Shown piece after piece: positions 10,877 through 63,930 of a stretch of DNA of 64,000 nucleotides (the stretch's first letter is position 1; each line of letters opens with the position of its first letter). The stretch lies in the IMG/VR virus record IMGVR_UViG_3300029288_000079, positions 96,001 through 160,000 of that record; one strand, given 5' to 3'. Below the pieces are notes generated by a model, which had not been told where the DNA came from, searched no databases, and worked only from the letters and a program-made list of their open reading frames with translations. Source of the stretch: a virus (taxonomy: Duplodnaviria > Caudoviricetes). The translations under genes and the position numbers were made by a program.

Positions 10877-13249
10877 TTACATCTGATTATCTAAAAATTC
10901 TTTTTCGTCTTCTTTTAAATCTCCAATAAATATATGTTCATATTCATAAGGACCTTTACCTATAGCTTTTTCTACATATAAAACAGCTCCTATTAAACTA
11001 TCAAACCCCATACCTCTATCTAATGACCCATCACCAAGCATCTCATTTGCTTTTTGTAATAATGCCTCTATAGATTCATATCCTGTTAATGATTTTGTAG
11101 GATATGCACCCTTTCCTCCACCCCATAAATATCCCAATACAAGTCCTTCTGCATTATATTCTACTTTAGGTATATCCCATGATTGTTTAAACTGTACAAT
11201 TTTAAAATCACCAATAGTATAAACCCAAGCTTCATCTAATATGTAAACTATTGAATCAGAATTATTCATGTAATCATGCCACATTTCACCAGGTAATATT
11301 TTAGCTGTAACAACACCCTTCACACATGTAGTTGAATTTACATTATTGTCTGAATTATACATCCCACGTCTTAAATGTGGATGCATATTAGTATTTATAA
11401 CTTTTACGGGACCAACATAGGCTTCTATAGTATCTCCTACTTCAGGTCCTTCAGGAGATATATCCCAACTTAATTTATTACTTGAATTTTCTTTTATAAT
11501 AGCTTCAATTAATTCTACAGCTTTATATGTAATTCCACTTATGTTCCATTCATTAATGTCTTCTAATGCAATACCACTCTCACCTAAATAACCCTTTCCA
11601 ATTTCCCAATCATGAATACAAGCTACGACAGTAATAAATTCATCTTCTGGATCTTCAATATGAACTTCCCATTCTACTGTCTCTTCCATATAAGGTTCCC
11701 AAGTAGGCCTACCAAATATTCTAAGCATTGTATTATAATCGCATACTATTCCCCCTACTTTATGCATACCACTAGGATTACTAATTTCATCCGGAGCTAC
11801 TGTTTTAAATTTTATCTTATCTTTTGGCAAATCCCAACTAAATTTTAAACTGGATTCTGCAGATAAATATTGTAACATTTTATTAATCTTATTTACTTTT
11901 TCAGTATTTCCCTCAGCTTTAGCTTTATTTAGGTCATCTAAATATTCATCTATTAATTCTTTACGATTTTGTTCTACATTTTCTTTAGAAAGATTACTAT
12001 CAAATTTTAAATCATTAGAATTAAGATTTGATTCTTCTTTAGGGGCATCTGTATTTTTTAATACATTTTTAAATGGATTATTCTTCTTTAAAATTCCAGA
12101 TTTCTCTACTTTTTTTGCTTCATAAATAATATTTTCAATCCCTTTCCAATAAACAGAATTAGTTTCTGGAAGGCCTACAAATTTTACTTTTTCTATTAAT
12201 TTAGAGGGATCAGGATCCCAGCAGTATCCCAAATTACCTCCCATAGGTCCTATTTTTTCACCATTACAGTATGCTTTATAACAATCCATAGCTTTTTCTA
12301 TAGATCCATTACCCCAAACAATATCAAAATCATTATACTTGGGATTTATTTTTGTAAGAGAGAATTCAAACCCTACAATTGGTAAACAAACTCCATACCC
12401 ATTTTTTTTAAAATTTCCAATACCTTTAACTAGCCATCCTGCATAACTAAGATGACTCTCATCACTAGGTTTAAAATTCTTAAAATCATAATCCCCAAAC
12501 ATATTCAATATGTCATTATTATCCCAAGCCTTCTTTTTAAATAATTCAGATATCACCATTTCATTAGTCTTAATTATTAAGGGATCATCATCCAAACTTA
12601 TTTCTCTGAATTCGTCATCTGAAGATAATTTTTCTCCATTTTCATATATTAAAGTTAATGGCCAAGACTCGTCTGAAAACCCACAACCACTCCAGATCCA
12701 ATTGTTAAATCTGCAATCAATAATATCTCTCCATTTAGCATCACCATATATTACTTCTGGACCAAATGAAAACATCATACCTATGTGCAAATAAATATTA
12801 TCAGCATCTATTTTACTAGATTTCCAAACTTGATAAGGTTTACATAAAGATTTAAAATCCTCAAAATTAGAAGCTATAACTTGCATAGATATATCCCAAG
12901 ATTTCTTCTCATCCTCAATAATACCTACATATTCCAAAAGATTAAAATCCTTAGGACTAAATAAACATCTTGTAAGTTGACCACCATCTATAATCTTTCT
13001 ATTAGCTTTAGGATTTAGTTTTAACCATTCAAATTTTTCTTTAGCCATATCAGGACTATCTGACCACATAGACCAAACTCGAACATCACCATTTTCAGAT
13101 GTTACTAAAGATATAACTCCATACTTATAACCCATACCCGTCCTAACAGTTGTATCATCTACCAACCATCCTATATAGCTATCAGGATCATAATCAACAG
13201 GTAACGCTGGTCCTATATCCCAACTCAATATGTTATTTTGCACTTGCAT
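10877..13249 (-). CDS. WDI-motif modular polyprotein (6 motifs)
   Basis: ILSWDI, KKSWDI, KKAWDN, KFSWDL, KLSWDI and KQSWDI separate IGW-type, PGQVW-type, SH3-like and other modules. Confidence 0.75.
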   Translation of the reverse strand: MQVQNNILSWDIGPALPVDYDPDSYIGWLVDDTTVRTGMGYKYGVISLVTSENGDVRVWSMWSDSPDMAKEKFEWLKLNPKANRKIIDGGQLTRCLFSPKDFNLLEYVGIIEDEKKSWDISMQVIASNFEDFKSLCKPYQVWKSSKIDADNIYLHIGMMFSFGPEVIYGDAKWRDIIDCRFNNWIWSGCGFSDESWPLTLIYENGEKLSSDDEFREISLDDDPLIIKTNEMVISELFKKKAWDNNDILNMFGDYDFKNFKPSDESHLSYAGWLVKGIGNFKKNGYGVCLPIVGFEFSLTKINPKYNDFDIVWGNGSIEKAMDCYKAYCNGEKIGPMGGNLGYCWDPDPSKLIEKVKFVGLPETNSVYWKGIENIIYEAKKVEKSGILKKNNPFKNVLKNTDAPKEESNLNSNDLKFDSNLSKENVEQNRKELIDEYLDDLNKAKAEGNTEKVNKINKMLQYLSAESSLKFSWDLPKDKIKFKTVAPDEISNPSGMHKVGGIVCDYNTMLRIFGRPTWEPYMEETVEWEVHIEDPEDEFITVVACIHDWEIGKGYLGESGIALEDINEWNISGITYKAVELIEAIIKENSSNKLSWDISPEGPEVGDTIEAYVGPVKVINTNMHPHLRRGMYNSDNNVNSTTCVKGVVTAKILPGEMWHDYMNNSDSIVYILDEAWVYTIGDFKIVQFKQSWDIPKVEYNAEGLVLGYLWGGGKGAYPTKSLTGYESIEALLQKANEMLGDGSLDRGMGFDSLIGAVLYVEKAIGKGPYEYEHIFIGDLKEDEKEFLDNQM

Positions 13250-14186
13250 ATAGCTCTAACTTCGTCTGCCAAACACCTTGAGGAATTAATTCACGCCATT
13301 CATGACCCTGCTTAGCAATCTTCTGAAATTCAATCTCATCATTACCTTTCATTATTCGAATACCTGCATGAGTAACACATTCCCTACCCTCTAGTCTATA
13401 ATCACCTTTTTGATCTATTAACCAAGTAGTAGGTTCAATGGAAGTTGTAGTGCTAAGAGCTGGCTGAGGTTGATTTTTTTGATTATACTCTTTTTCATGA
13501 TTAAACTCACCAAAAGCCCAATCTTCAAATACTAAAGGTTCCTCATTACTAAGATGTTCTCTATCCATATATGTATGATATTCCTGTAAGAATTCTTGAT
13601 CTTTTGATTTTGCAGCAAGCCATGTTTTGAATTCCGGATTACTCTCATAAAAAGCCTTACGTTCAGAAGCACTTTTTTCAGAAATTTTCTTTTCAGGTTC
13701 TGTAGGTTCTATAGGCTGAACTTCAGGAGATATAGGAGCAGACACCTGACCTTGCTGGACACCTTGCTGGACACCTTGTCCAGGTAAAGGTGTAGTAATA
13801 TCTATCTGTAAAGATCCATCAGGCTTTGTCTTTACACTTGTATCAGCTTTTTTAGTTAAAAAAGTATATCTCCAATCAGGAATATTTGATGCTTTCTGAA
13901 AGAATCTACTAGCTGATCTACTACGTAAGCTTTCAAAGCGTTCCCGCCTTGTCTTCCCATCCATTAGGGGTGAGTTCTTATCCACAGAAATCTCCTTTTT
14001 AGAGTCAGACCTTTGCAATCCATTACCTTCTTTCCAGGCTGACTGTTCTTTATTTACAGGATTTCCAGAGCTAGGAAACTTGTCTCCTGTAAATGTTGCA
14101 TTATTTGGGATCTGTTTTCCATCAGGTATTTTATATACCCCAGGTTTTTGATCTTCCTTAGTTGAGAATATTTTTCTCCAGTTCAT
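13233..14186 (-). CDS. Putative internal head protein
   Basis: MNWRKIF start; shares FTGDKFP..NP....AW..G with the scaffold; K-x-A/S motifs; AAGGAG RBS. Confidence 0.55.
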   Translation of the reverse strand: MNWRKIFSTKEDQKPGVYKIPDGKQIPNNATFTGDKFPSSGNPVNKEQSAWKEGNGLQRSDSKKEISVDKNSPLMDGKTRRERFESLRSRSASRFFQKASNIPDWRYTFLTKKADTSVKTKPDGSLQIDITTPLPGQGVQQGVQQGQVSAPISPEVQPIEPTEPEKKISEKSASERKAFYESNPEFKTWLAAKSKDQEFLQEYHTYMDREHLSNEEPLVFEDWAFGEFNHEKEYNQKNQPQPALSTTTSIEPTTWLIDQKGDYRLEGRECVTHAGIRIMKGNDEIEFQKIAKQGHEWRELIPQGVWQTKLELYASAK

Positions 14187-14201: not shown

Positions 14202-16196
14202 TTATATTTTAATTATTGCTTCTTTTGCCTTACTTACAGGTATTGATATTACTTTCGGAGTAGCATTTGTGTAATTCACATCTTTATGTATAATTGATAT
14301 TACAATCTCTCCATCCTCCCAAACCTTAGGCCAACCAGGATGCTTTTCATAATCAGTTCTAATTATTTCTAATATTCTTTTATCACTATTATAAAAATCT
14401 TTGTTGCCTACATTATCACAATACCAACTGAATACTATCCAACTTTTTATTTTAACCTTATCTCCCACCTCAAATTCATCTATTTCTGGTATATCCCATG
14501 AATTAATTAAAGGTGAATCCTTTACAAATATTAAAGGAAAATCAGTCTCTCCAAAATTGTATATACCTTTAACATTCCAACTAATAGGATATGTTATTTT
14601 TGGTTCATCATAAAACCACATAATAGAATAAATAAAAACTGTATTGAAATTCGATATCTCATATCTATATGCATTACCTAGTATAAAATAAAAATATTTA
14701 GCCTTTATACTATCAAAAGTTTTCCATACCTGTCTTGGGCCAGCTATACTTATAAAATCTTCTATTGTATCTGCTTGATAACCTGAATTTAATATAGGTT
14801 TAATATCCCATTCTTCAGAAAATCTCAAACTACTAGTAGTTTCTTGTGTATATTCCCATATATCTTCTTGAGCTTTAGCTAGTAAACTATCAAAATCAAT
14901 ATTCTTATTAGTTCGTTTAGCAGCTTGTCTTGCATATTTTATAGCATTAGCAGCAAAAAAAGCAGCAGCATTATCAGAAAAAAAAGCAGCAGCATTATCA
15001 GCATAATAAGCAGTAGCATAAGCAGCATAATAAGCAGTAGCATTAGCAGCATAAGCAGCAGTAGCAGCATAACCAGCAGCAGCATTAGCAGCAGAATAAG
15101 CAGAATAAACTTTATCTCTATTTTCTTTACTAGGATTCTTAAAACAAGTTTTTGCTGCTTCTATACATTTTCTAACTCTATCATCATTAGGATATTGCTC
15201 TTCATAAATACTTAATACAGCTTCTGCACAGTATATAGCATAAAGTAAATTTACTTTTTTAGGATCTACTTCTATAGGTTTAATGTCCCAGGATATCAAG
15301 TCCTTTTGAAAAATATCCTGCACCTGCCATTTATCGGGTGGACCGATACCACCAAATATCCACACTACAGCTTCTTTATTAAGAATATTGTTTTGTAATA
15401 ATTCAAATATGCAATCCACAAATTGTTGATTGTCTTGTATATCTTGAATAGCTACTTCATTTTTATTATGACTAACTCTTCCCAACATACTAACATGGTA
15501 TACCTCGGGACCTATACTTTCTCTAAGATCTGAATGAGTTTGTTTTGAGTCTCCTATTATAAGCTTACCATTATTATATAAAAAAGGTCGTCCTGCGCCA
15601 GTCTCAACATCGAATCCAGAATAGCTTGAAACTTTTCTATGTCTTTTATATCTATCTTTCACTTGTATATTAGGATCATATCCATCATGGTCTACTAAAC
15701 CTCTTCTTACATAATCCTCATCACAATCAGTATGATAAAATACTGTATCTATTTTTTCACCATTTAGATATACATCCCAAGTACCTGAATGCTCAGGTTT
15801 CTTAGGCTCTATATCCCATGATCTCTTTTTGGGACCACTAAAATTTAAATAATCTTTCGCAGATTCTATTATATCTTTTGAAACATTATCTATACTTCCT
15901 ATATGTGTACCTAAATAAATTGCCTTAGAAAAGGTTTTATTTTGTTCTGAAATATTTTTATTAGCATAAGTAGAGCTAAATCCTTTCCAGTTACCATTAT
16001 AACCACAATAAATGTAATCTCCTAATAATTTATTATCAATATGTTTAAAATTTCCTAATATATATAAATTATTTGCTACATTTTCATATAAGTAAACATC
16101 ATCATCTTTTATAGAATTTACAAACTCTTCAAAAGAGTCTATCCATGATATATCAGGAATATCCCAACTTAAAGATTTAATTTCTATAGGTTCCAT
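14202..16196 (-). CDS. WDI-motif modular polyprotein (5 motifs) with Imm5-like cassette
   Basis: SLSWDI, KRSWDI, LISWDI, EEWDI, INSWDI. Confidence 0.75.
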   Translation of the reverse strand: MEPIEIKSLSWDIPDISWIDSFEEFVNSIKDDDVYLYENVANNLYILGNFKHIDNKLLGDYIYCGYNGNWKGFSSTYANKNISEQNKTFSKAIYLGTHIGSIDNVSKDIIESAKDYLNFSGPKKRSWDIEPKKPEHSGTWDVYLNGEKIDTVFYHTDCDEDYVRRGLVDHDGYDPNIQVKDRYKRHRKVSSYSGFDVETGAGRPFLYNNGKLIIGDSKQTHSDLRESIGPEVYHVSMLGRVSHNKNEVAIQDIQDNQQFVDCIFELLQNNILNKEAVVWIFGGIGPPDKWQVQDIFQKDLISWDIKPIEVDPKKVNLLYAIYCAEAVLSIYEEQYPNDDRVRKCIEAAKTCFKNPSKENRDKVYSAYSAANAAAGYAATAAYAANATAYYAAYATAYYADNAAAFFSDNAAAFFAANAIKYARQAAKRTNKNIDFDSLLAKAQEDIWEYTQETTSSLRFSEEWDIKPILNSGYQADTIEDFISIAGPRQVWKTFDSIKAKYFYFILGNAYRYEISNFNTVFIYSIMWFYDEPKITYPISWNVKGIYNFGETDFPLIFVKDSPLINSWDIPEIDEFEVGDKVKIKSWIVFSWYCDNVGNKDFYNSDKRILEIIRTDYEKHPGWPKVWEDGEIVISIIHKDVNYTNATPKVISIPVSKAKEAIIKI
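14808..15293 (-). repeat. Imm5-like cassette copy 1 (486 nt, matches 30660..31145)
   Basis: Same sequence at an offset of 15852; the antisense ORFs 14925..15215 and 30777..31067 have identical translations. Confidence 0.9.
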
Positions 16197-16862: not shown

Positions 16863-18212
16863 CTATATATTAGCTGAGAAATGCCCCGAGTAACCTTTTT
16901 CTTTTGACCACAAGTAACCTTCTGCAGCTCTAGTACTCTTTACATAACCTTTCTTAAAATGCCAAGAGTCAGTACCTGAAAGACTTGGTAGAGTCCTTAC
17001 TGTTACAGATCCATAACTATCATCCATACCGTAAGCCATTCTTTTCCTAGTATGCGTATGTCCAATATGCCACTCCTTACTTATACAATCCGCCCATGCT
17101 TCTGAAGCCTCATCAGCCATTAATGTAGGTAACATGCTATGTTTCTCATCATCTCCATGAGTAAATCCTATAAGACATCTCCCGTAATGAACATACTTTC
17201 TTGGAGAGGGAGATACATCTACGATAACATTATTTACACCCTTATACCAAGCCGCTAACTCTCTTACTAGGTGATATGAAGATGTTCGATCATGATTTCC
17301 TGGAACCCATAGAATATCTACTGGTGCAATAGCTCTTAAATAATCAATAGCATTTACACAAGCCAAAACTCCTTTAGCAAATATTTTAGGATACCTAGAA
17401 TCAACGTCTTGAGGTGTGTCATTTACAGTAGTATTTCGTGCATTGTCTATATGAAAGAAGTCTTGACCCACAGGAAATAGAATCTTTTCTATAGGAAATC
17501 CCTTTGTCTTAGAACAAAGCTCTACTACAGCATCATGATATATTTTTTCAGCTATTTTCATATCGTAGTCAGTACCTGTTTCTTTTCCCCAAGCAAGCTT
17601 TCCAAAGTGAAGATCAAATATACTAATCTCCAGTAGATGTTTATCCTTTACAGGTTTAGGTGTCTGAATTTTAGTATACTTAGGAAAATGTTTCTTTGCT
17701 TCTTTAAGTAATTCATCCAAACCATCAGACACTTTTTTGTCCACTTTTCTTCTAAGCCATACTTTAACTTGCCACAAAGGTTGGGTGAGCCATTCATTCT
17801 TTCTTATAGAATGTCCATCCATAATACCTTTATCCCATTTCAAATTTTGATCTCTATATTTTGCTCCCACCTCCCATTTATTTATAACATATCTATCTAC
17901 TTCCCAAATACCCGTATCTACGTTACCCGCCTTCAGTGCATCTTCCAAAGTTTTTATAGAGTGAGATACTGAAACTAAAGATTTCTGATTATCATTACCC
18001 TCTTCTGTAAAATTCTCTTGTGGCTTCTCAATAATACTCCGTAATTTTTCTGCAAAAGGTTTCTTCAATCTCCTCGCCCTGTGATCTCCACATTTAAACC
18101 TTCCCATCAACTCATCAATTGTTACAGTCGGGTCTTTTTCAATAAATTCTATTATTTCTTTATCCGATGCTGTTTTCACATTTGATTTAGATTCCATCTC
18201 TATACCTTCCAT
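16863..18212 (-). CDS. Calcineurin-like metallophosphoesterase with N-terminal HTH
   Basis: DLHFG, GQDFFH, GNHD, HGD and GHTH motifs. Confidence 0.85.
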   Translation of the reverse strand: MEGIEMESKSNVKTASDKEIIEFIEKDPTVTIDELMGRFKCGDHRARRLKKPFAEKLRSIIEKPQENFTEEGNDNQKSLVSVSHSIKTLEDALKAGNVDTGIWEVDRYVINKWEVGAKYRDQNLKWDKGIMDGHSIRKNEWLTQPLWQVKVWLRRKVDKKVSDGLDELLKEAKKHFPKYTKIQTPKPVKDKHLLEISIFDLHFGKLAWGKETGTDYDMKIAEKIYHDAVVELCSKTKGFPIEKILFPVGQDFFHIDNARNTTVNDTPQDVDSRYPKIFAKGVLACVNAIDYLRAIAPVDILWVPGNHDRTSSYHLVRELAAWYKGVNNVIVDVSPSPRKYVHYGRCLIGFTHGDDEKHSMLPTLMADEASEAWADCISKEWHIGHTHTRKRMAYGMDDSYGSVTVRTLPSLSGTDSWHFKKGYVKSTRAAEGYLWSKEKGYSGHFSANI

Positions 18213-18879: not shown

Positions 18880-20316
18880 CTATTGTAAAGAACAAGCACT
18901 ACTAATATCACCATCTTTAATCAACATATCATACATATCCAAAACATTGTCTCGACCTAACTCTTTATAAAGTCTACGCAGATATTCGTCCCTGCCCTCA
19001 TCTTGTTGACGAGCATATTTCTCCAGTACTATAGCATCCTTAAATGCAGGAGAGGCCACAACAGATAGTTCAAAGAATGATAATTCATGATTAATTTCTA
19101 AATTTCTAGCTATAACATATCTGCTACTTGTACCGTTTAGTACTTCTTGTATATCTCGCTGACTAGACAAAATATGGGGTAGCCATTCCGGACGTAAATG
19201 TTCACTATCAAGAAGATCTCTTATTTGATTTGCAGATACACTTGTAAGCCTACCCTTGTTGCCCTGCTTCATATGAGTACAATAATCTGAACTATAACGA
19301 GCTTTTGTATTACAAACTGAGCAAGTAGAATAGTTTACATTACAATTATGGACAATAATACCTCCCGCAACATAACTATGATCATGCTCTACTTCGAAAT
19401 TATATACATTACCATCATAATCAATTTCTTCTATATTGTCAACATAAAATCTGATAAGACTCATAGTACTATCAAACCCCATTACCTTATTATCTATAGC
19501 AAGGTCCCCAGCCTCTATCCAATATACTTCTTCAATTTTATAGTCATAATCAGTAGCCACTGGATGCTCTAAGGTAATAATTATTGGTTTATCACTACTT
19601 GGAGTTATAATTTTTAAAGCCTTACCTTTATATTGTCGAATCATTGTTTCAGTTACCTTTTGTATTGCTCCTGTATGGGATATGACTGAATCTCCCACCG
19701 ATACAGATTCTATTGGCATAGAAGACTTATCGGCCATAGTTACCAAAGCTCCTGGAGCAAAACATCCCATTGAACATGTTAAATTTTGTCCAGTGTCAAT
19801 CATACGAACAATACGTTCTAGTAACTCCTTGGTCTTCCTATCATGACTAGCAGACTTAACTAATTGGGTATCAATTCTCATTAATACTTCTATGTCCCCA
19901 AGAGTTTGGTCTTTAGCTTCTAATATATTTTTACGAAGTACATCTTGCTTTCTAGATAGCAATGATGCCCATTTCTTTTCTTTAACTTCCTCTGGATAAT
20001 TAAATCTATTCAGAAAAGCATCCGGAAGATCACCAATAGAACCACGAAGACCAAGTTTTGAATTATGTTCCGCGTGACTTTTTTTACCAATAAAACTTTT
20101 ATACCCATACCCAGGACGTTCATCTTCAAAATATTCATAAGGAAACGCATCAGCATTTCCGTTGGCCCCTGACTTTTCGAAATTTCCAATGGCTCTAAAA
20201 CGAAGATATCTGAATTCGTTTGTGTCTAATGGTAAAATTCTTTTCTCGTACTTAGCTGCTTGCCTAGATGTCAAAGGCTGAGGTTTAATAATTTGATTAC
20301 ATACTTTAACTAACAT
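18880..20316 (-). CDS. Prohead maturation protease (HK97/herpes-type serine protease) with intein
   Basis: ANGNADAF, HAEHN (His), SMG (Ser), CSVC..YCTH and FFELSVV..PAF motifs; start MLVKV with AGGTGA RBS; located between portal and scaffold. Confidence 0.85.
   Translation of the reverse strand: MLVKVCNQIIKPQPLTSRQAAKYEKRILPLDTNEFRYLRFRAIGNFEKSGANGNADAFPYEYFEDERPGYGYKSFIGKKSHAEHNSKLGLRGSIGDLPDAFLNRFNYPEEVKEKKWASLLSRKQDVLRKNILEAKDQTLGDIEVLMRIDTQLVKSASHDRKTKELLERIVRMIDTGQNLTCSMGCFAPGALVTMADKSSMPIESVSVGDSVISHTGAIQKVTETMIRQYKGKALKIITPSSDKPIIITLEHPVATDYDYKIEEVYWIEAGDLAIDNKVMGFDSTMSLIRFYVDNIEEIDYDGNVYNFEVEHDHSYVAGGIIVHNCNVNYSTCSVCNTKARYSSDYCTHMKQGNKGRLTSVSANQIRDLLDSEHLRPEWLPHILSSQRDIQEVLNGTSSRYVIARNLEINHELSFFELSVVASPAFKDAIVLEKYARQQDEGRDEYLRRLYKELGRDNVLDMYDMLIKDGDISSACSLQ
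19345..19764 (-). mobile_element. Mini-intein (140 aa, no endonuclease) in the protease
   Basis: SMG|CFAPGALV...TLEHP...VYNFEVEHDHSYVAGGIIVHN|C. Confidence 0.9.
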
Positions 20317-22057
20317 TTTTATCACCTGTAGTTTGTAGAAATTGATCCATTGTATATGGAGTAAAATCATTGGCAAATATTACAGCTACATCATCACTTG
20401 TAAAATTATTACATATTAATCTATCTAAACAATCTACAAGCTTATCAAACTCATCAGAAAATTCTTCAGGCTTATAGTCAGGGTTCCAGAATACAACAGC
20501 GTTAGTTCCCGCCCTACCTACAAAAGCATTTTTATAATCATTCAAATCAATATTAATATCAGGTATATCTCTATGTAAATCACCTTTACGACCAAAGCTT
20601 AATTTTCCATTTTCATAAAAAAATGGAATACCTTGAACACCTGCTAGCATAGATTTAGGTATATTAGAGTGTTTTGATAAAGAAGATTGTTTATTATTAG
20701 CAAGCTCTAAATCACTACCAAATATAATATAAGTATACCCATTATGTACTAAAGGTTCCACCTCATATATCATTTTTCCAGTCTTATTATGAACATCTTC
20801 TGGATATATCTCATGAATTACTTTATATTTCTTATGATATTCCAGTCTTTCATATTTATATTTACCTTCTATATCTAATATAATATCATCCCCTTCTTCA
20901 TCAAAAATAGCAGCAGGATCAGTGTCACGAATTTTAGTAACAATATCACCTATAATAAATTCCTGTTCTAAGTCTGGTATATCCCAGCTTAATGATCCGA
21001 ATTTATCCGAAAGATAATCTTGAATACTGCCATAAAATAACTCCTTATGCACACCATTGGCAGTGATTACAACCTTAGTTGCATCTGTCTTACGCAAAAA
21101 CTCTATTATAAAACCCTTCTGATTTCCTATGACACCTTTATTCCAAACTTCAAAATAAATAACCCCCTCTTGCAAATTACTTCGAACCCATCCCTTATTT
21201 AAAAGATACTCTTGAGGTTTAACATTATATTCACTGTTACCTGCATCCATTATACCTGAAGCCTCTTCTTCATAGTTAGGATAGAATTTTAATATCAAAG
21301 GTATAGCAGACTTGGTGTGATCATCCAAAGCATCAAAATTATCCCCCATAGGAGATATCCAACACCTACTATAGTCTGTTGTATATCCATTATAAAGAGT
21401 TATAGGATTCTCAACCTCAATATCTGGAACATCCCAGCTTAAATTCATATTCTGTTTCGGAAAGGAATAAAGTTCAGCTTTGCCAGAATCACCTGTTTTT
21501 CTTGAGTCAGTGATAATATGTTTAGATTTATCTTTTAAAAGATTGTGTCTATAATTAACCATATGTTCACCAACATCTGTTTGAATATTACCATGTATTT
21601 CTAACCCAGGATAATTTTTCTGCACATAATCTACAAACATTTTTTGCATCTGTTTTCCATATCCCTGATTTCTATACTCCGGCAATATATAAAAAGTAAT
21701 TACTTTTATAATTGGCTCATTTAAATCTTTCGAAGATTTTTCTATAGCAAATCCTAACAACCCAACATCTAGACCATTATCAATTAATACTAAAGCATTA
21801 AGGGCATAAACATAGTGTTTAAAAAAATCAGACCCTTTACTACCCCCCTCGGCATCTTTATTTTCTACAAACTCATGCCCCGGCATTCTCTTTACAGTTT
21901 CTTCAGGAAGTACATAATTATCTTTATTACCATAAGGATGCTCCCATGATAACCAACCTCTAAAAAAAGATTGATCTATAGGTTTTAAATTTTTCAATTC
22001 CCATCGAAATCCTATGCCAGAACCATCAAAGCTTAATATATTTCTAACCTTCTCCAT
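20306..22057 (-). CDS. WDI-motif modular protein with N-terminal GNAT acetyltransferase
   Basis: FYILPEYRNQGYGK acetyl-CoA motif; NLSWDV and SLSWDI; WISP..G...H...GWVR and SH3-like modules. Confidence 0.7.
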   Translation of the reverse strand: MEKVRNILSFDGSGIGFRWELKNLKPIDQSFFRGWLSWEHPYGNKDNYVLPEETVKRMPGHEFVENKDAEGGSKGSDFFKHYVYALNALVLIDNGLDVGLLGFAIEKSSKDLNEPIIKVITFYILPEYRNQGYGKQMQKMFVDYVQKNYPGLEIHGNIQTDVGEHMVNYRHNLLKDKSKHIITDSRKTGDSGKAELYSFPKQNMNLSWDVPDIEVENPITLYNGYTTDYSRCWISPMGDNFDALDDHTKSAIPLILKFYPNYEEEASGIMDAGNSEYNVKPQEYLLNKGWVRSNLQEGVIYFEVWNKGVIGNQKGFIIEFLRKTDATKVVITANGVHKELFYGSIQDYLSDKFGSLSWDIPDLEQEFIIGDIVTKIRDTDPAAIFDEEGDDIILDIEGKYKYERLEYHKKYKVIHEIYPEDVHNKTGKMIYEVEPLVHNGYTYIIFGSDLELANNKQSSLSKHSNIPKSMLAGVQGIPFFYENGKLSFGRKGDLHRDIPDINIDLNDYKNAFVGRAGTNAVVFWNPDYKPEEFSDEFDKLVDCLDRLICNNFTSDDVAVIFANDFTPYTMDQFLQTTGDKNVS

Positions 22058-24032
22058 TTATCTTCCTAAGTAATGCAATATTCTCAATTTTCTTTGCATC
22101 TAACAAACTCTTGTTTTCAAATGAAAGAGTAACATCATCTCGAGTAACATCTCCAATTACTTCTCGATGTAATTGATCCATTTGACTTGCCATTCCTGCT
22201 GGAGGAGTTTGACCTCCTGCAGATTCCGGAGGACCACCCATACCTATTGGAGCTGGTCCTAGACCATCAGCCCCACCTTCCGGACCACCTGGAGCTTCAC
22301 CCTCTGGACCACCTACACTAATATCTCCTATACCCCCAAAATCAATAGGACCACCTCCACCCCCCGCACCACCCTTTTTATTATCCTGCATAAATGGTAA
22401 CAATCCTGATTTAGATATAGTTATTAACCGCTGTTGCTTACGTCTCAAATCCTCAATATAGGCTTTTTCTTGAGTATCACGATCAAGTCTGCCAAGTCTA
22501 GCTAATGTAGCATCATCAACTAAATGTGGCCTTTTATCTACCAACCATTTTATAAAATTCTTTAAATTTTCATCTGTAGAAGCTGATAAAGATCCCCAAT
22601 CTAATTTAGGATATACATATTCACGCACTTGACGTTGTTGCTGTTGCTGAACTTCATCAGCCTTCACCTTTAAGTAACTTTTAAATTCTTTATTATCTTG
22701 AATATCACGCAGAGTAGTAAATTGTTGCCCAATCTTTTGCATAATGTCATTACCACTACCATATTTGGAAGATCTAACTCCACCATACCCTGCAACAGCA
22801 TTTTTTACACGATAGAATCCACAAAGATCAGCCGTTGTTTTAAACACACCTGAGTGAACAAAGTTTTCAATCTTTAATTGATAGTTAAGGTAACGCTGTC
22901 TTTGTACTTCCATATTTATGTACGCTTGACTGTATGACCCACCTTGACCTGCAAGTAATTGTTCATGAACTCCGAGTCCAATAAATTTCAATCGATATAT
23001 GCGATCAAGCTCGGGTCCAACAGGAAGCATTTTACCATTACTACCCACGTGTTCCACATTTATTCCATAATGGTAGAAGATTGAAAAATTGGGATCCAAT
23101 TCAAATGCAGCAAACATATTACGAACTTCCTCAAGCTCTGCATTGTCTGGCATATACCCAGAAGTTGGATCTCCGATTTTAACAAGCATCATTGGAACTG
23201 CATGGCGTGTGGCTAATGCAAAATTAGCTTGATTGAATCTATCCTCCAACATTAAGGTTTTAAGAATACGTTTAATTATACTCTTACCCTGCTGTTCATA
23301 AGGTCGTTTCGCATGAGCTATATGAAATACGTTGTTTGGGTCCAGTGGAATCTCTTGATTAAATAATACATATCTTACAATCTCGGGAGGCAGTTGATCA
23401 TATATGAATCTAGGAGTCTTTGTTTGTACTATTTTCCTCAATGTCTCATCAGGAATTAATTTGATCAATGGACGTTGATTAACCCATGTTGATTCTATCT
23501 TAACATAGTCAGGATTCAATATTGCAAATTGATCCCACATGTAATCCGCATTGTTCCACGCACCAAAGGCATAAACATTTCCTATTTCAAAATATTCTTG
23601 TGAGATATCTGTCAACATTTTAAAACCATTTATTCTCTCCCACATATCTGTAAAATGCTGCTGTATACCTGAATCCTCGCATTGCCCTAACCGTAAATCT
23701 GATAGAGGCATTTCCGCAAGCATCTTAACGGCAGCACCTACAATAGGATCAGTCTCTCCAAAGAAACGATACAGGCCATGCAAAGTTCTACTATCTGGCG
23801 GAATAGCCAATGTAGAACTAGAATAGCGAGGATCGTTGAACATTGGAGCTATACGTGTTATATCAGACGAAGCCTTAGCTCGAATCTGTGCTACCTTATC
23901 CAATGACAGATTACTACGTTGTGGTAATATTGAAGGGGTTTGAACTAATGTTGCCTCTATTCTTGCAGCCTCAATATTACTATTCGAGATATCTGTTATA
24001 ATGTGTTTGCCACCTGGTTGTAGTTTGTACAT
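22044..24032 (-). CDS. Portal protein
   Basis: DPIVGAAV, YFEIGNVY, ILNPDYV, VFHIAH...GKSII and PMMLVKIG portal-type motifs; G/P-rich C-terminal tail; position next to the protease. Confidence 0.85.
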   Translation of the reverse strand: MYKLQPGGKHIITDISNSNIEAARIEATLVQTPSILPQRSNLSLDKVAQIRAKASSDITRIAPMFNDPRYSSSTLAIPPDSRTLHGLYRFFGETDPIVGAAVKMLAEMPLSDLRLGQCEDSGIQQHFTDMWERINGFKMLTDISQEYFEIGNVYAFGAWNNADYMWDQFAILNPDYVKIESTWVNQRPLIKLIPDETLRKIVQTKTPRFIYDQLPPEIVRYVLFNQEIPLDPNNVFHIAHAKRPYEQQGKSIIKRILKTLMLEDRFNQANFALATRHAVPMMLVKIGDPTSGYMPDNAELEEVRNMFAAFELDPNFSIFYHYGINVEHVGSNGKMLPVGPELDRIYRLKFIGLGVHEQLLAGQGGSYSQAYINMEVQRQRYLNYQLKIENFVHSGVFKTTADLCGFYRVKNAVAGYGGVRSSKYGSGNDIMQKIGQQFTTLRDIQDNKEFKSYLKVKADEVQQQQQRQVREYVYPKLDWGSLSASTDENLKNFIKWLVDKRPHLVDDATLARLGRLDRDTQEKAYIEDLRRKQQRLITISKSGLLPFMQDNKKGGAGGGGGPIDFGGIGDISVGGPEGEAPGGPEGGADGLGPAPIGMGGPPESAGGQTPPAGMASQMDQLHREVIGDVTRDDVTLSFENKSLLDAKKIENIALLRKINGEG

Positions 24033-52496: not shown

Positions 52497-55400
52497 TTAC
52501 CGAATAGGTCTTACCTTAGATTTATTCCCCCAGCCTGTAGGTCCTGCTAGTGGAGAAACACCTTTACGTCTAAATTTAGCGGGTAAACCATCTCTATGAG
52601 CTTGTTTAATGCTCTCCTTCGTAGGATTCATCCTTAAACATAATCTATGTATTAAGTTACTAACTACATCGGCCAGGTCATCTGTTTGTACTGGACCAGT
52701 GGCAGGGTGATGATAATACACAATGCCCCCAGCATGATCCTCTTGCAGATACTTCATTTCAGTTTTCCACAGCTGTACCCAACCCCCATCATCCACTCCA
52801 TACATCTTCACATTACCTAATTGAGCTTCAGATAGGAAACTGCCATACATTTCAGCCTTATATGGATTGGTAAATGTTGTTTCAACTGCAGGTAATCCTA
52901 CGGCTTGTAATGCATGGACTGGAGGCGAGGATTCAAATTGGTCATAAGCTATCTCTAAAATATAATTTCTGCCCCCAAGATCATCCACAAGTTTAAATAC
53001 AAATTCCAACACTACATTAGGATCCACCTGAATTATCTCATGTCTACCCATACCTACATTTTTAAGTGTAGCATTGAACCCAAACATACCATCCACAATA
53101 TAAGTATACTTCTTTGTAGTAAAATCCTGTTCAGCATGTCCCCAGGATACTGCATATGTATCAGCTTTCTTTTTCTTGGCTTTTCCACCAGGATCCAGAG
53201 TAATAATGTAATGCTTTCTTCCACCAATGTTATCCCTACACATTGGTACGGTTGATTGAGGTATTGCATTTATAACTGCTTCAGATATAAACTGCCCAGA
53301 TGGATTTCTAAAATGAGCTCCATATTCTGAATTACATCCAACAGGATCTGCTCTAAATTCTGAATCTAATACTTCTCTTGTAATTGTGGGTCTGACTTCC
53401 CATGTAGCAAATTGAAATAAGCAGTAACCCACTTCAGGTTCAATATTTGCAAAGTTTTCCTGCTCCATTCCTCCAGCCATACAATAGTAATGATAGAACT
53501 CCCCACCTTTCTCTACGGGAGAAGATTCCATAATAACCCTACCCTCGTCTCCAAAGTCCTGTACAGATGGAATTAATGCTTTAGTAATGGCATAATCAGA
53601 TCTAGGATTCTCAGATACTAACTGTTCCTCAGACTTAGTAGGATCAAATTTAGCTCTTACGAAATGAGCAAACTCAGACAGCATTAACAAATACGTAGCA
53701 TCACCACGTTTTGTAGTTCCTGATGTTGTTACAGATTTGATATTGATAGTGCCGGGTTTCCTAGGTTCCTTCGATTCTCCACTTCCCCTGAGTACCTTCC
53801 TATTCATTTCAAATATCTTATCATTCTCTAATTTATCTACAGGTGTAAACAACCTCAACTCAGTAGAACTATCCTTATCAAAATCTATAAAAGGCTTGAA
53901 AAAATCAGTAGAACGAATATTATCTCTTGATAAAGTAAATACAGCTTCTGCTTGATCTCCACCCGCAGCAACGTGAGTAATATATATAGGATGTCTATCA
54001 CGTATGCCAAAATGTTTCTGAGGATTACCTAATGTAATCAGCTCATATGTACTTACACATGAAAAGAAAGACATCAAAGTACTATTATGAACAACAATAT
54101 CATTAGCTATAAAATTATGTGTATCTTCAACACTCAGATCATAGGTATCTTCTTCCCCAATGTATTCTATTTTATTTATAATGTCCCAATCTACATCTGA
54201 TATAGATAGATCTCTCAATAATTCATCGTCCAGTACATCAGCTATTCTACCCAATTTTTCACGATTAATAGACCAGCCTTGCCCTATTCTACCATTAATC
54301 TCTCTCAATCTTTGTTTACTTAACTTTTTTTCAATTCTTTTATCATTAATATAGTTTAAGATTTCTTTAGGTATGCAAGATATTAAAGTATTAGGTTTTT
54401 TATGAAGTCTTTCCTTTTTAAGAACTATACCCAATCTCTTTTCTTTTTCTCCAATAAATCCTATCTTATTAAAATACTTCTCAATATCCTCTTTTCGTCT
54501 TATATATAACTTATACGAATCAAATCTCTTATAAAGACCTTCTTTATTACTAAAGTAACCGCTTTTTACCTTTTTAACACTTCCAACTATTCCAAATCTT
54601 AAAAGCAGACTTTGTACTTGTAGAATTAATTTATACGAACTAGAAGAGTAAAATATAAAACCATCTTTTCCATTATCTACCACGCACCCATCACAAGAGA
54701 ACAAAGCTTTTAAAAAATTAGCAATGATTTCATTAGAAGAATAATTTATAACTTCTGGAACTTCTTTATCTATAGACAAAACACCATATAAACCATGTAT
54801 CTTACAAAACTCTCTCGCATCATTTGGAATTCTACAATTCTTGGAAATAACATTTTTGACTATTCTATAACTATATCTATTATGACCTGTATAATTCATT
54901 TTACAGTTAAATTCCTTACAGCAAGTTGCCATATCTGATAATATTGCAGAATCTGTATTTGTAAAACTAAAATTGCCATGGGTTCCACCATCCCCAATCA
55001 TATAACCTAAAAACCTAGATTTTTTGTCAGATAAAATATCTGTATTAATATCTACCGAGATTGGAATATTATTTGGTATGGCTATTCTAGATTCTATCGT
55101 AAGTTCACTTAACTGCCTCCACCCTGAAATAGTTAAAAATTTATGATTTTGAGTAGTCTTTAAAGTTTTCCCAGTTCTAGTTGAAATTCTATAGACAGGT
55201 TTTTTACCATTGAAATTAATACTATAATTTATAGTAGACGTAATCTTATAATGAGAGTCTAATGTTAATATTTTTGGTTTTAGATTATTATTATATATAT
55301 CATCTAATCTAAGTAATGATCCTGTATCTACATCATATATAGTAGAATCTCCTGTAAGACATTTGGTACCGCGGCGGCCTAGGGCAAGAATAAATCTTTT

Positions 55401-55667
55401 AGGCCTGGCATCTGTATTGATGTTAACAGCTATATGCCACTTCTCCCATAAAAGATTTAGTAGGGCCATCTCGTCTGCTGTTGGAGGATATAGTAACCAC
55501 AATCCATAGTATGTCTTAATAGCACAAGATTGAAAAACAGTTGGAGTCTCCCCCATAAACTCTGTACTAGCTATGAACTCCAGAGCATCCACCTTCTCCA
55601 TAGGCTGAACTTCTTCTACAGCCTCTTCAAAGTATTGCTGACCAGCTTGTAGGAAATCAAAATCCAT
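52497..55667 (-). CDS. terL: Terminase large subunit with intein (about 630 aa after splicing)
   Basis: Walker A GRRGTK|S, Walker B-like LLMLSEFAHF, ESSP coupling motif, and nuclease motifs ITLDPG, YDQF and DDLADV. Confidence 0.9.
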   Translation of the reverse strand: MDFDFLQAGQQYFEEAVEEVQPMEKVDALEFIASTEFMGETPTVFQSCAIKTYYGLWLLYPPTADEMALLNLLWEKWHIAVNINTDARPKRFILALGRRGTKCLTGDSTIYDVDTGSLLRLDDIYNNNLKPKILTLDSHYKITSTINYSINFNGKKPVYRISTRTGKTLKTTQNHKFLTISGWRQLSELTIESRIAIPNNIPISVDINTDILSDKKSRFLGYMIGDGGTHGNFSFTNTDSAILSDMATCCKEFNCKMNYTGHNRYSYRIVKNVISKNCRIPNDAREFCKIHGLYGVLSIDKEVPEVINYSSNEIIANFLKALFSCDGCVVDNGKDGFIFYSSSSYKLILQVQSLLLRFGIVGSVKKVKSGYFSNKEGLYKRFDSYKLYIRRKEDIEKYFNKIGFIGEKEKRLGIVLKKERLHKKPNTLISCIPKEILNYINDKRIEKKLSKQRLREINGRIGQGWSINREKLGRIADVLDDELLRDLSISDVDWDIINKIEYIGEEDTYDLSVEDTHNFIANDIVVHNSTLMSFFSCVSTYELITLGNPQKHFGIRDRHPIYITHVAAGGDQAEAVFTLSRDNIRSTDFFKPFIDFDKDSSTELRLFTPVDKLENDKIFEMNRKVLRGSGESKEPRKPGTINIKSVTTSGTTKRGDATYLLMLSEFAHFVRAKFDPTKSEEQLVSENPRSDYAITKALIPSVQDFGDEGRVIMESSPVEKGGEFYHYYCMAGGMEQENFANIEPEVGYCLFQFATWEVRPTITREVLDSEFRADPVGCNSEYGAHFRNPSGQFISEAVINAIPQSTVPMCRDNIGGRKHYIITLDPGGKAKKKKADTYAVSWGHAEQDFTTKKYTYIVDGMFGFNATLKNVGMGRHEIIQVDPNVVLEFVFKLVDDLGGRNYILEIAYDQFESSPPVHALQAVGLPAVETTFTNPYKAEMYGSFLSEAQLGNVKMYGVDDGGWVQLWKTEMKYLQEDHAGGIVYYHHPATGPVQTDDLADVVSNLIHRLCLRMNPTKESIKQAHRDGLPAKFRRKGVSPLAGPTGWGNKSKVRPIR
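54084..55361 (-). mobile_element. LAGLIDADG intein (426 aa) inserted in the terminase Walker A motif
   Basis: K|CLTGDS...TQNHKF...LGYMIGDG...FLKALFSCDG...YDLSVEDTHNFIANDIVVHN|S. Confidence 0.92.
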
Positions 55668-56772: not shown

Positions 56773-56868
56773 TTAAATTAATTCTATATCAGACTCCAAC
56801 AAAAATATACTATCTAAGTCACCAACATTGAATTTACTAAATGTAATATCCCAAGCTAATGATGTCAT
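56773..56868 (-). CDS. 31 aa WDI mini-ORF MTSLAWDITFSKFNVGDLDSIFLLESDIELI
   Basis: ATGA overlap with the upstream stop; carries the start and end signatures of the SH3-like WDI modules. Confidence 0.6.
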   Translation of the reverse strand: MTSLAWDITFSKFNVGDLDSIFLLESDIELI

Positions 56869-57464
56869 GACAATGGAACTCCATCTATTGCATCTAACAT
56901 CATAATCCACTGATCTATTATTTCTAATTTTTTATCTATGGCTGTAAGAGCATTAGCCGCATGTTTAGATACTGATGTTGCAGCAACAATCTTATATTCA
57001 ATATCATCAAGCTTATCTTTCAGATCAGAATAACTCTTCACACCATTAAAGAACTCCGTGTCCCCGGTCCCCATATCTAGATAGGAAGGTATGGCTACAG
57101 GCAAGGATCCAATCAAACTATTAAGAAAGTCCGATATTAATTTCAATGTTCCTGCATCGGCCCCACTACTATCTGTACCACTCAATGGTATTGAATTTAT
57201 AATAGTATTTACTAACCCACTATTAGGTGTTAGAAGAGAATTTACAACTAATCTTTGCTTCTGTAATGCGTTAGAAACTACATCACAAGATTGTATATTA
57301 AACAATATTGTACTGCGAGTACTCATCAATAAGGAAGCTTTCTGAGTAAATAAGAATGATTTAATACCCACTCTTAATGGTCTCGACAGATTGATGAAAA
57401 ACTGAACCAATCTAGCATCAATCCCAGTAGACTCAGCTATTGTTTTTGCTTGAGTGCTTGACAT
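56865..57464 (-). CDS. Hypothetical helical protein
   Basis: Likely start MSSTQAK with GGAG RBS, overlapping the upstream stop. Confidence 0.55.
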   Translation of the reverse strand: MSSTQAKTIAESTGIDARLVQFFINLSRPLRVGIKSFLFTQKASLLMSTRSTILFNIQSCDVVSNALQKQRLVVNSLLTPNSGLVNTIINSIPLSGTDSSGADAGTLKLISDFLNSLIGSLPVAIPSYLDMGTGDTEFFNGVKSYSDLKDKLDDIEYKIVAATSVSKHAANALTAIDKKLEIIDQWIMMLDAIDGVPLS

Positions 57465-58726
57465 TATATTAACTCCACATTGTCCACAGCAAACCCCCAA
57501 CCAATTTCCTCATGGCGAGATGCTGGATATAAGTCCCAACTTACACCAATATGAGGTGTGATCATTTCATTTAAACCTACACTAACAACTGTACCCTTTG
57601 CACCTATAGGAAGTTCACCAATGGATGTATATGTTCTTGCTAGACGAGGTGTACCTTCTTTAATCCTAATTCTATCCCCTATTTGAAAATCATTTTCAAG
57701 TCTAGGTATATCCCAACTTAATGTATCTTCTGCAAGTTCTAGATCTTCAGTTGTGAAAAAATCTTCCCTATTACAAGTTGGATACAAATTAACTACCCAA
57801 TAATCGTCACCTCGAAGTGTGCCTTTGCCCACTATATAGAATATGTGATTAGAATCCTCTCTGTAAGCATTAGGAAAATCAGAATCATATTTCATCCACA
57901 CATTAAGTGGTGCATAAATAGATTTATTCTTAATCCTTACCTTGCTCCCAACTTTTAACTCTAGATCAGGTATATCCCAAGATAATAATGGATCCTTCTC
58001 AGGTTTAATATATTTTAATAATCCCTTTCTTATCATACCATTATTGAATTTAATAAAATCATCAAACTCTGCCTGACTATTAGCCTGACCCACAATATAA
58101 AAACCACTAAAAGGTTTAACATTCAAAATTCCGGGTGATGGGACTATAGTAGACTCAGGTTTCTCACCCTTAAAGGGAACTACACATCCATATATTCCGG
58201 TTATGTTTTCACTATCTTTATCATGCTTCACACAACCATAAGATATTAAATCTAAACCTTGCCTCCATATTGCACATATTATTGTCCCATAAGATATATT
58301 TATTTCCTCTAATTGGTCTATTGTATATGGACCATCTAATACAATACCTATGTCCCAAGACAATTTCTCTATTGATTGAATATAACTTTCTATTTCTGAT
58401 TTATTCTCCTCAATAAATCTTTCAAACTCTTCAGAAGTTATATTAGTAGCAATAGTATTAAATGTTGTTCCCTCATGATATCCTATTTCTCTAGTATCAA
58501 ATTTGGTATCAATTGTATCTATGAAACCTTTAAGTTTATTATTGTAAACATGACAATATTTGTCTACTAAACCCTCTGAATCTACATGTATTATATTAAA
58601 AATCCCTCTACATATTGAAAATCTAACCAGTATTACATCCAACGGAACATCCCTTAGTTCAGGTATACTTATAAAATTTCCTGGATTAAAAGTTCCTACT
58701 GATATGTCCCACGCCAATGATTTCAA
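57464..58726 (-). CDS. WDI-motif modular polyprotein (4 motifs)
   Basis: SLAWDI, KLSWDI, LLSWDI, TLSWDI; two SH3-like modules. Confidence 0.7.
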   Translation of the reverse strand: MKSLAWDISVGTFNPGNFISIPELRDVPLDVILVRFSICRGIFNIIHVDSEGLVDKYCHVYNNKLKGFIDTIDTKFDTREIGYHEGTTFNTIATNITSEEFERFIEENKSEIESYIQSIEKLSWDIGIVLDGPYTIDQLEEINISYGTIICAIWRQGLDLISYGCVKHDKDSENITGIYGCVVPFKGEKPESTIVPSPGILNVKPFSGFYIVGQANSQAEFDDFIKFNNGMIRKGLLKYIKPEKDPLLSWDIPDLELKVGSKVRIKNKSIYAPLNVWMKYDSDFPNAYREDSNHIFYIVGKGTLRGDDYWVVNLYPTCNREDFFTTEDLELAEDTLSWDIPRLENDFQIGDRIRIKEGTPRLARTYTSIGELPIGAKGTVVSVGLNEMITPHIGVSWDLYPASRHEEIGWGFAVDNVELI

Positions 58727-62023: not shown

Positions 62024-62076
62024 TTTATGTCTCCTTTAATAGAAATTAGTTATTTATTTTTCTTTATTATATATTT

Positions 62077-63930
62077 TTATACCCACGCCTTAGAATCTTC
62101 TATATTATCAAAGTCAATGCTAAAATCCTGTGAATCCCTAGACTCCATATCTCCATAATCAATGCCTTGTTCATATAAATCTCTCACCTGTCTTTTACAG
62201 ACACCCCTCATAATAACATCTCCAAGCACAGTCTCACTATAAGGTATATAGAATTTCCTCACCGGAGCATAATCCTTTTCATTAATATACGCACCATCAT
62301 CCTTAGGATCCTCAATATCATTTTCTGTATTATTTATATCCCAAGCCTTAGTCTGATTAGATGCAATGTCTATATTCCGTGAGTCTACAATATAAAATCC
62401 TTTATCTTCATACCCATCCCATACCACTGCAACCAGATATTCTCCCTCTTCATTAAAATATTCAGGTCCTGGATCTACAACAGTTCCTAATGTTCCTATG
62501 GGTAAAGTACCAAAACCCCAAGTTCTACTACTCGAAGCACAATCATTTATTACAACTCTAGCACCTACAATGAAAAAATCCCTATTCTTTTCTATTGAAA
62601 TATTCCAGGCTTGATGTTCATTATTTTGTATTTCCACAGGTGAGAGGTTTTTAGAATTAATCCATACTTCACTTGGTATATTTTTATTAGTATTCTCTAA
62701 TTTTAAAGGAAAATTATCTGGATATACATACATATATTTACATATTATATAAGAAGCATTAGATGCATTAATTAATATGTAACATTTACCATTAGTTCCT
62801 TCATAATATTTTAAATTATAATCCAAAACCTTACAATCCTTACCCGTGTATAAATCTTTCGTATTAAACTCACCAAAAATAGATTTACTCCAATGTTGTC
62901 CCGGACGAATAACCTCCCCCAACTCTTCAATTGTATTCACAACAAGACCTACTTCAGGTTCAGGTAATTCAATATCCCATCCAAATTTCTCAGCATCAGT
63001 CTGCTCATCATCTACTTTACGAATAGATTCTACATCTGTTGTCCATCCTAAATATTCTTTGTTACCCCAATACCAACTACATTTAGGTAAATGAAACCAC
63101 TCCACTTCAACCATATCCCCATTTTCAGAAACAGACTCGACAGTACCTCTAGAACCTACATCTATCTCACCTGCATCAAGATTATCCTCTATTAAAGATT
63201 CTACAAGATCTCCAACTTTAAAATCCGGTTCAGGTAAATCCCAGGACTGCTTTATATTATCAAATGTTTTATCAGTCTTAACTAACCTCATAGGAAAGGA
63301 ATCTTTAATTACTATACAATCAGACCATGCTTGATTTACCTTTTCATCTATTGTAAATGTCCAAGCACAATTTGGAAACGTCCACGCAGCCAGATGATAA
63401 TCTGACTTTACTCCTGACCCCTCAGCATCAAAATTAGGACATATATTAAGATATATACACCCAATCCCACCACCACTCCACACCTGCCCCACTTGAGCAT
63501 TACTAATGAGTTCACTAATATCCTCCACTACCGTACCTACAGTAACTTCTAATGGTATATCCCAAGAATGTTTGTCTTCTATGCTTAATTTATCATATTC
63601 TATAGAGTCCATATCCCAGTCAACATTATCATTGTTCAAATATTCTCTTACAGCAACCACTAAATTACCAGTTTCATATTTATTCCATTTAAAATTACCA
63701 GCATCCTCACAAAATTCCAACCCCGATTCATCAAAGTATTTAACAGCCTCATCAAATGTTCTACACCATATAGCCCATACACTACCCCCACTCTTACTCA
63801 AAGAAGGACTACAAGGTAGAATTAATACAGGAACACCATATAATAATCCACCCCTTACATGATAAACTTTAGGTTCTATAAAGGGTATATCCCAAGATTG
63901 AGTTTCAGTATGTTCGGCTATCTCATTCAT
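62077..63930 (-). CDS. WDI-motif modular polyprotein (6 motifs)
   Basis: TQSWDI, KHSWDI, KQSWDL, KFGWDI, HQAWNI, TKAWDI. Confidence 0.75.
   Translation of the reverse strand: MNEIAEHTETQSWDIPFIEPKVYHVRGGLLYGVPVLILPCSPSLSKSGGSVWAIWCRTFDEAVKYFDESGLEFCEDAGNFKWNKYETGNLVVAVREYLNNDNVDWDMDSIEYDKLSIEDKHSWDIPLEVTVGTVVEDISELISNAQVGQVWSGGGIGCIYLNICPNFDAEGSGVKSDYHLAAWTFPNCAWTFTIDEKVNQAWSDCIVIKDSFPMRLVKTDKTFDNIKQSWDLPEPDFKVGDLVESLIEDNLDAGEIDVGSRGTVESVSENGDMVEVEWFHLPKCSWYWGNKEYLGWTTDVESIRKVDDEQTDAEKFGWDIELPEPEVGLVVNTIEELGEVIRPGQHWSKSIFGEFNTKDLYTGKDCKVLDYNLKYYEGTNGKCYILINASNASYIICKYMYVYPDNFPLKLENTNKNIPSEVWINSKNLSPVEIQNNEHQAWNISIEKNRDFFIVGARVVINDCASSSRTWGFGTLPIGTLGTVVDPGPEYFNEEGEYLVAVVWDGYEDKGFYIVDSRNIDIASNQTKAWDINNTENDIEDPKDDGAYINEKDYAPVRKFYIPYSETVLGDVIMRGVCKRQVRDLYEQGIDYGDMESRDSQDFSIDFDNIEDSKAWV

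Follow-up and report, generated by a model that had tools for sequence, protein, structure and literature searches.

A tryptophan-centred peptide prefixes the modules of polyvalent proteins encoded among phage head genes and may be an address that is also cut

What does a short tryptophan-centred peptide do when it recurs dozens of times in long modular proteins encoded among the head genes of a large phage? The question is raised by a 64,000-nucleotide stretch of Caudoviricetes DNA (hereafter the window), which spans bases 96001-160000 of the IMG/VR virus record IMGVR_UViG_3300029288_000079 (181,733 bp, rated as complete), has a G+C content of 32-36% and carries nearly all its genes on the minus strand. 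An earlier note on this DNA had described a W-D-I motif and read it as a maturation-protease cut site, a capsid-loading tag, or both. We found that the motif is under peptide-level selection, that it stands in front of modules with unrelated folds and that related phages carry their own versions of it; the reading that we tentatively favour is an addressing tag that is also cut.

Two patterns were counted, W[DN][IL] and the stricter [SAG]W[DN][IL], in which a small residue precedes the Trp. Nine large genes on the minus strand of the window together contain 46 copies of W[DN][IL], and a 31-amino-acid (aa) open reading frame (ORF; 56773-56868) contains one more, so that the manual estimate of about 47 motifs across ten genes proved exact. 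The stricter pattern occurs 47 times genome-wide (181,733 bp), compared with 3.3 occurrences expected from composition. The ten large genes at 10877-67394, the tenth of which extends past the end of the window, contain 46 such sites, whereas 2000 residue shuffles of the ten proteins averaged 0.83 and never exceeded 7 (the 31-aa relic ORF being left out of that count). Beyond this head-region block there are three chance-like matches in any reading frame, and the ~200 other genes of the genome are without the motif. The enrichment near head genes was thus confirmed against shuffled controls, and the contrary outcome considered in the earlier note, a motif equally common in non-virion genes, is not what this genome holds.

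The sequence logo of the motif reads K-L-S-W-D-I-[P/S/K]-x-I-E. Its Ser is encoded 25 times by TCN and 13 times by AGY, and its Asp 36 times by GAT and nine times by GAC; the Ile, Asp and Pro codons match the background usage of the same genes, and a slight CTC/TCC excess was traced to four recently copied cassettes. Since synonymous codons at the motif follow the background, selection acts on the peptide, as had been argued from the mixed Ser and Asp codons alone. Successive motifs are separated by a median of 115.5 aa (80-200 aa in 29 of 36 intervals), consistently with the view that each opens a compact module, and the ~50 sites, each of roughly 18 bits, lie between swappable modules. The motif-bearing genes, all on one strand and tightly packed with or overlapping the portal and protease-like genes, are the following.

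10877-13249, minus strand: 790-aa modular protein; six W[DN][IL] sites, the first at residue 10
14202-16196, minus strand: 664-aa modular protein; five sites, the first at residue 11; Imm5-like cassette at residues 303-462
20306-22057, minus strand: 583-aa protein directly downstream of the portal gene; weak GNAT match; canonical site at 358 and a WDV site at 208
24051-31616, minus strand: giant polyvalent protein of 2521 aa, encoded immediately upstream of the portal; 17 sites
31619-36265, minus strand: 1548-aa protein with a pentapeptide-repeat region; a single motif (W495) ahead of an inserted Imm5-like cassette
37722-40355, minus strand: 877-aa modular protein; four sites; C-terminal S-adenosylmethionine (SAM) methyltransferase
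42869-43648, minus strand: 259-aa protein; one site (W47) before a family-C module
56773-56868, minus strand: 31-aa relic ORF (MTSLAWDI...ESDIELI); one motif
57464-58726, minus strand: 420-aa modular protein; five sites, the first at residue 6
62077-63930, minus strand: 617-aa modular protein; six sites, the first at residue 13; motif kept by orthologues at 34-79% identity
63939-64000, continuing to 67394 (L010:936-4394), minus strand: 1152-aa gene, 3' end in the window; sites W7, W106 and W776; Pfam LPD28 and Imm5-like domains

One and the same tag precedes unrelated folds in these proteins: SH3/KOW-like modules, which form the commonest family, Imm5-like modules, LPD28 and two unnamed families. 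The 2521-aa giant combines SH3/KOW-like, two Imm5-like and 2H phosphoesterase modules with the unnamed families C and D. Over all polyproteins, Pfam recognised Imm5_like five times (E-value, E, 1e-15), a 2H phosphoesterase (E 2.5e-6) and Methyltransf_25 (E 1e-9), together with the weak GNAT match and the pentapeptide-repeat region; LPD28 ('large polyvalent protein associated domain 28', E 4e-12) lies in the gene just past the window, and proteins of relatives add Fic and InPase domains. No peptidase family matched any polyprotein module (Pfam, E up to 0.1), several modules being without an assignment. In five of the genes listed, and in most orthologues, the tag falls within the first 6-13 residues, gene starts following the form M-x(3-11)-S-W-D-I, and single-domain proteins of the relative L015 begin MVKLSW, MSLLNLSW and MDTLKLSW. 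These N-terminal copies and tagged single-module proteins make the tag a module prefix and not merely a separator.

Where the motif sits relative to the folds was explored by modelling single modules of families A and C with AlphaFold 2 (AF2) from paralogue alignments, each with the 10 residues before the Trp and with the next motif at its C-terminus. The family A model (predicted local distance difference test, pLDDT, 82.5) was SH3/KOW-like by Foldseek, with a probability of ~1.0 but an E of 0.02. For the family C model (pLDDT 80.4) no convincing fold was found (best E 0.36 by Foldseek against the PDB, best Z 4.6 in a wide VIA-align search, best E 0.07 in BFVD, TM score below 0.5 in the ESM Atlas), a sequence profile against the PDB returned nothing and an Atlas feature search gave no usable match. 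In both models the K-L-S side has a pLDDT of 58, W-D-I and the next residues are coil (pLDDT 75-80), the first strand begins 10-14 residues past the Trp, and the C-terminal motif copy has a pLDDT of 59-67. The earlier note had proposed comparing domain boundaries with the motif, and the Pfam and PHROG domain models (Imm5_like, LPD28, small SH3-like phage proteins) indeed begin 4-10 residues past the Trp. Since coil is predicted and the domains start after the Trp, the motif is placed by these models in the middle of a linker of ~20 residues, outside the domain cores. The buried structural strand that had been raised as an alternative is not predicted, the motif being coil of pLDDT 58-80 outside the aligned fold cores.

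About 50 modules are distributed over 10 proteins, and module comparison bore out the description of families that recur in differing orders. For four Imm5 cassettes in three genes, DNA identity runs from exactly TCC-TGG-GAY-ATT to the next TGG, and two Imm5-like cassettes in different genes (14802-15320 and 30654-31172, minus strand) are 100% identical in DNA; all four Imm5 cassettes have an Ala/Tyr/Asp-rich low-complexity core of variable length. The relative L002/L006, whose portal is 81% identical, encodes an orthologous 2860-aa giant protein with ~19 motifs, and the homology blocks that it shares with the 2521-aa giant are shuffled, with breaks 2-11 residues before the Trp. The locus upstream of the 275-aa gene beside the terminase holds the 31-aa relic here, a single module in L011, a pair in L012 and seven in L004. 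Compared with the 420-aa protein, its orthologue P0002 (73%) has gained or kept two further modules, each of which starts L-S-W-D-I. These comparisons indicate that cassettes are exchanged from gene to gene and from phage to phage, and that the breakpoints coincide exactly with the motif. Codon diversity rules out a DNA-level recombination site as the sole explanation of the motif. P0007 (L004), which ends ...QSWDV-stop, was considered as a free-standing C-terminal tag and rejected, because its module resumes in another frame after the stop; the break, right after the tag (L004:4600-4920), is likely a frameshift or an assembly error, and L011 has similar breaks.

Outside this genome the motif varies. 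A HMMER search with the 617-aa protein against 1.84 billion representatives gave only eight matches, seven of which carry the motif, down to 32% identity. The relative L013 (67% identity) has S-S-L-K-L-G-W-Q-x-Q-P-E at about 19-23 sites in three polyvalent proteins, L015 (49% identity) has K-K-L-S-W-x-E-P-E at about 24 sites, L004 has S-W-D-[V/I/L], and L017 has a few [L/F]-[S/A]-W-E-[E/D] sites. As K-L-[S/G/A]-W is kept across relatives while its flank changes, the constant core is K-L-[S/G/A]-W. D-I, part of the motif as the earlier note gave it, is a lineage-specific flavour, local to this genome (the tail is D-I-P here, and relatives have Q-x-Q-P-E or x-E-P-E instead). Each genome uses one form of the tag throughout and the form differs from genome to genome, although the modules behind it share only 20-30% identity; a reader that co-evolves with the tag would produce this pattern. 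A related-locus search with one alignment (A4) found none in IMG/VR and two loci in metagenomes. By portal, the nearest relatives with names are phage G and virus Rctr197k (30-32% identity), and both are without the motif.

Peptide-level selection, uniformity within a genome with drift between lineages, an exposed Trp kept ~50 times and retention at N-termini together argue for a phage-encoded reader acting in trans. On the reading that we tentatively favour, K-L-[S/G/A]-W would be a short linear tag on the N-terminal side of each cargo module, recognised by a phage-encoded component of the head. The polyvalent proteins would be made together with the portal and protease and would then enter the procapsid, where the S78-like prohead protease (18880-20376) would cut in or beside the tag, plausibly between the small residue and the Trp. 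A few long ORFs would in this way yield dozens of domains of ~10-20 kDa, small enough to exit through the tail with the DNA; those released would be SH3-like adaptors and Imm5-like, 2H, GNAT, methyltransferase and pentapeptide modules. The existence of the reader, its identity with the protease, cleavage, packaging and injection are what we infer. The genes of the window that bear on this scheme are the following.

4004-4663, minus strand: major head protein, C-terminal two thirds (phrog_2522, E 4e-37)
7033-8862, minus strand: 609-aa Glu/Lys-rich scaffold-like protein with only an off-consensus A-S-Y-W-D-I-T
18880-20376, minus strand: 498-aa protease-like protein with a mini-intein at a conserved CSMG/C site; candidate reader
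22044-24032, minus strand: portal protein (phrog_16240, E 2e-56), without the motif
36281-37720, minus strand: 479-aa protein whose C-terminal part has a clan-MH (M42/M28-like) metallopeptidase signature, between two motif-bearing genes
52497-55667, minus strand: large terminase subunit with an intein that has a LAGLIDADG domain; marks the packaging module

The motif genes therefore do lie around and between terminase, portal, protease and scaffold, as originally stated, the protease-like and scaffold-like assignments being tentative. The portal has Bacillus phage G as its nearest named relative (30% identity). The candidate reader belongs to a family with an invariant His, an invariant Ser-Met-Gly, directly after which the mini-intein of 18880-20376 follows, and an ELSVV..PAF segment; its 112 homologues are mostly intein-less, ~336 aa long, and lie on contigs of up to 194 kb. 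Peptidase_S78 matches three of 27 family members, weakly (best E 0.014), the exteins found no match in the PDB or INPHARED, and the family profile found none in the PDB. The protein is a putative divergent S78-type prohead protease. The 479-aa protein (36281-37720; PHROG E 1e-11, Pfam M42 E 0.2) is, by its signature, a second candidate processing enzyme.

Several further observations concern the same neighbourhood. Homologues of the protease-like protein come in three states (no intein, mini-intein, LAGLIDADG intein), and inteins occur in two head genes of the window (18880-20376 and 52497-55667, both minus strand). The major head protein is apparently split: 4004-4663 covers only phrog_2522 positions 106-314, a 320-aa ORF with LAGLIDADG-like sequence lies just upstream (4702-5664, minus strand), and a possible first exon (MIQIPTSNPGKG...) lies at ~6108-6299 (minus strand); Rfam found no intron family above threshold in the split gene (4004-6299). 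The scaffold-like protein (7033-8862) and a 317-aa protein (13233-14186), both on the minus strand, share the segment F-T-G-D-K-F-P-x3-N-P-x3-E-x2-A-W, which is present also in the relative G001 and could be a separate head-assembly signal. Inside the head operon, directly after the protease-like gene, an Mre11/SbcD-like metallophosphoesterase is encoded (16863-18212, minus strand; GNHD and GHTH motifs; phrog_704, E 2e-76), which is kept in L002. A transglycosylase-like protein (42252-42842, minus strand; phrog_34720, E 5e-7; SLT in the homologue of a relative) stands among the tagged genes and is itself without a tag. Beyond the window, a type IX secretion C-terminal sorting domain (Por_Secre_tail, E 1e-7; L010:13895-14896, genome 172895-173896) and an FGE-sulfatase-like protein (L010:10728-11957, genome 169728-170957) give hints of a Bacteroidota host.

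Some points weigh against a tag that is both address and cut site. None of the capsid, scaffold-like, portal and protease-like proteins has the consensus [SAG]W[DN][IL]; in T4 and in phiKZ/SPN3US the core head proteins, and even the protease, carry the cleavage motif, and its absence from them here counts against a plain maturation-protease site. The identification of 18880-20376 as a prohead protease is weak, no cultured relative with the motif was found, and the moderate pLDDT at W-D-I (75-80) may leave room for the Trp to dock on its own module. The original proposal of a cut site or loading tag thus stands in part: peptide-level selection, confinement to the head operon, position at module boundaries and shuffling cassettes agree with it, the motif-free core head proteins do not, and on sequence grounds it is plausible but unproven.

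Loading or docking without cleavage, the alternative that survives best, seems to us not very likely. The motif would then be a multivalent short linear motif, comparable in its binding to an encapsulin cargo-loading peptide, and the polyproteins would be held in the head intact, as beads on a string, by the procapsid interior, the scaffold, the portal or the SH3-like modules themselves. Every argument for a trans-acting reader applies equally to this possibility, which is also consistent with the lack of the motif in the classical protease substrates, with the predominance of SH3/KOW-like modules and with the tagging of single-module proteins, where a cut would remove only 5-12 residues. Against this, a candidate binding partner was not found, an intact 2521-aa chain would have to unfold to pass the tail, and the known phage precedents couple targeting with cleavage (T4 capsid-targeting sequence, CTS; PMC10052503).

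It is unlikely, in our judgement, that the motif is a structural and evolutionary junction only, that is, a standard linker and N-terminal cap which folds harmlessly, allows any cassette to join any other in frame and is the point at which cassettes cross over, with no reader. Such a junction would account for the exact bounds of the Imm5 cassettes and their two identical copies, for the breaks 2-11 residues before the Trp in the giant proteins, for a locus with 0, 1, 2 or 7 modules in different phages, and for a pLDDT that is higher just after the Trp than before it. However, with codons this diverse only ~8 nucleotides are conserved, too few for DNA homology to maintain the motif, and a passive linker need neither be uniform in one genome yet different in the next, nor keep an exposed Trp ~50 times, nor be retained at N-termini with only 4-5 preceding residues; moreover, one cap is unlikely to suit at least five unrelated folds. 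Improbable, finally, is a tag whose reader acts after injection or is some other enzyme: a host protease, an N-degron pathway that recognises the new N-terminal Trp, or the M42/M28-like metallopeptidase 36281-37720, which could trim linkers. In favour of this, the clan-MH-like gene is flanked by two tagged genes and the closest relative has kept it, and the tag is commonly followed by Pro or an acidic residue. Against it, the match to the peptidase is weak, the enzymes of clan MH are known as exopeptidases, and a tag that drifts from lineage to lineage is better explained by a reader of the phage than by a conserved one of the host.

Polyvalent proteins are regarded as the weapons that a phage delivers first, and boundaries written in their sequence bear on how their domains are loaded, separated and exchanged. 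The module boundaries of ~50 unknown domains become testable in this way, as do a candidate protease or receptor specificity and a possible capsid-loading tag. It is conceivable, if doubtful, that an uncultured clade of ~170-195-kb phages uses a drifting, genome-specific peptide code by which any domain of ~100 residues is sent to the capsid and set free inside it. If so, the cassettes would be plug-and-play, tag and reader would co-evolve, new effectors would be gained by pasting a cassette behind a tag, and the tag would suffice to load, and perhaps to deliver, foreign proteins.

How does this arrangement compare with known systems? In encapsulins, a short conserved cargo-loading peptide directs proteins that are unrelated to one another into the interior of an HK97-fold shell; those peptides are usually C-terminal, single-copy and of a different consensus. 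In T4, the internal proteins and Alt carry an N-terminal capsid-targeting sequence that is cut by gp21 at L/I-x-E (summarised in PMC10052503). As in T4, where such cargo is delivered with the DNA, a short N-terminal peptide here marks unrelated small domains, putative cargo, that are encoded with the head genes, and the single-module MVKLSW... proteins of L015 look analogous to T4 internal proteins. Unlike T4, which has one tag per protein and a gp21 motif also on capsid and scaffold, the present tag occurs up to 17 times per chain, is Trp-centred and is absent from core head proteins. In phiKZ, 201phi2-1 and SPN3US, gp175/gp245 process head proteins at A/S/G-x-E, with 14 sites in nine proteins (PMC10052503). 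The likeness lies in a large phage, numerous proteins inside the head and several cuts in each of them at a short consensus, the last two being predicted for the present phage; the cuts in those phages mostly remove N-terminal propeptides, including those of the portal and protease, at a three-residue motif that ends in Glu.

The closest likeness is with the phage-type polyvalent proteins, for which capsid packaging was inferred by their authors (Iyer, Burroughs, Anand, de Souza, Aravind 2017, PMC5512222). Those proteins are long strings of 2-15 or more unrelated conflict domains, encoded beside portal and packaging genes and highly mosaic, and they share LPD28, 2H, methyltransferase and GNAT domains with the window, and Fic and InPase with its relatives. 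With many domains, mosaic giants, signature domains and a packaging-gene setting, the ten proteins appear to belong to this class, a likeness that the earlier note had drawn and that the LPD28, 2H, GNAT, methyltransferase, pentapeptide and Imm5-like domains support. In that class in-built zincin-like MPTase domains, frequent though not obligatory there, were proposed for processing, whereas no peptidase domain was detected inside the polyproteins here; the word 'linker' is absent from that text (PMC5512222), and here K-L-S-W-D-I prefixes almost every module. A literature search for 'LSWDI' returned only irrelevant papers, and a Trp-centred per-module tag, its exclusivity, its drift in a clade and exchange exactly at the tag were not found in the literature searched. 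The polyvalent, probably head-packaged class is thus known, and the Trp-centred tag in front of its modules is what appears to be new.

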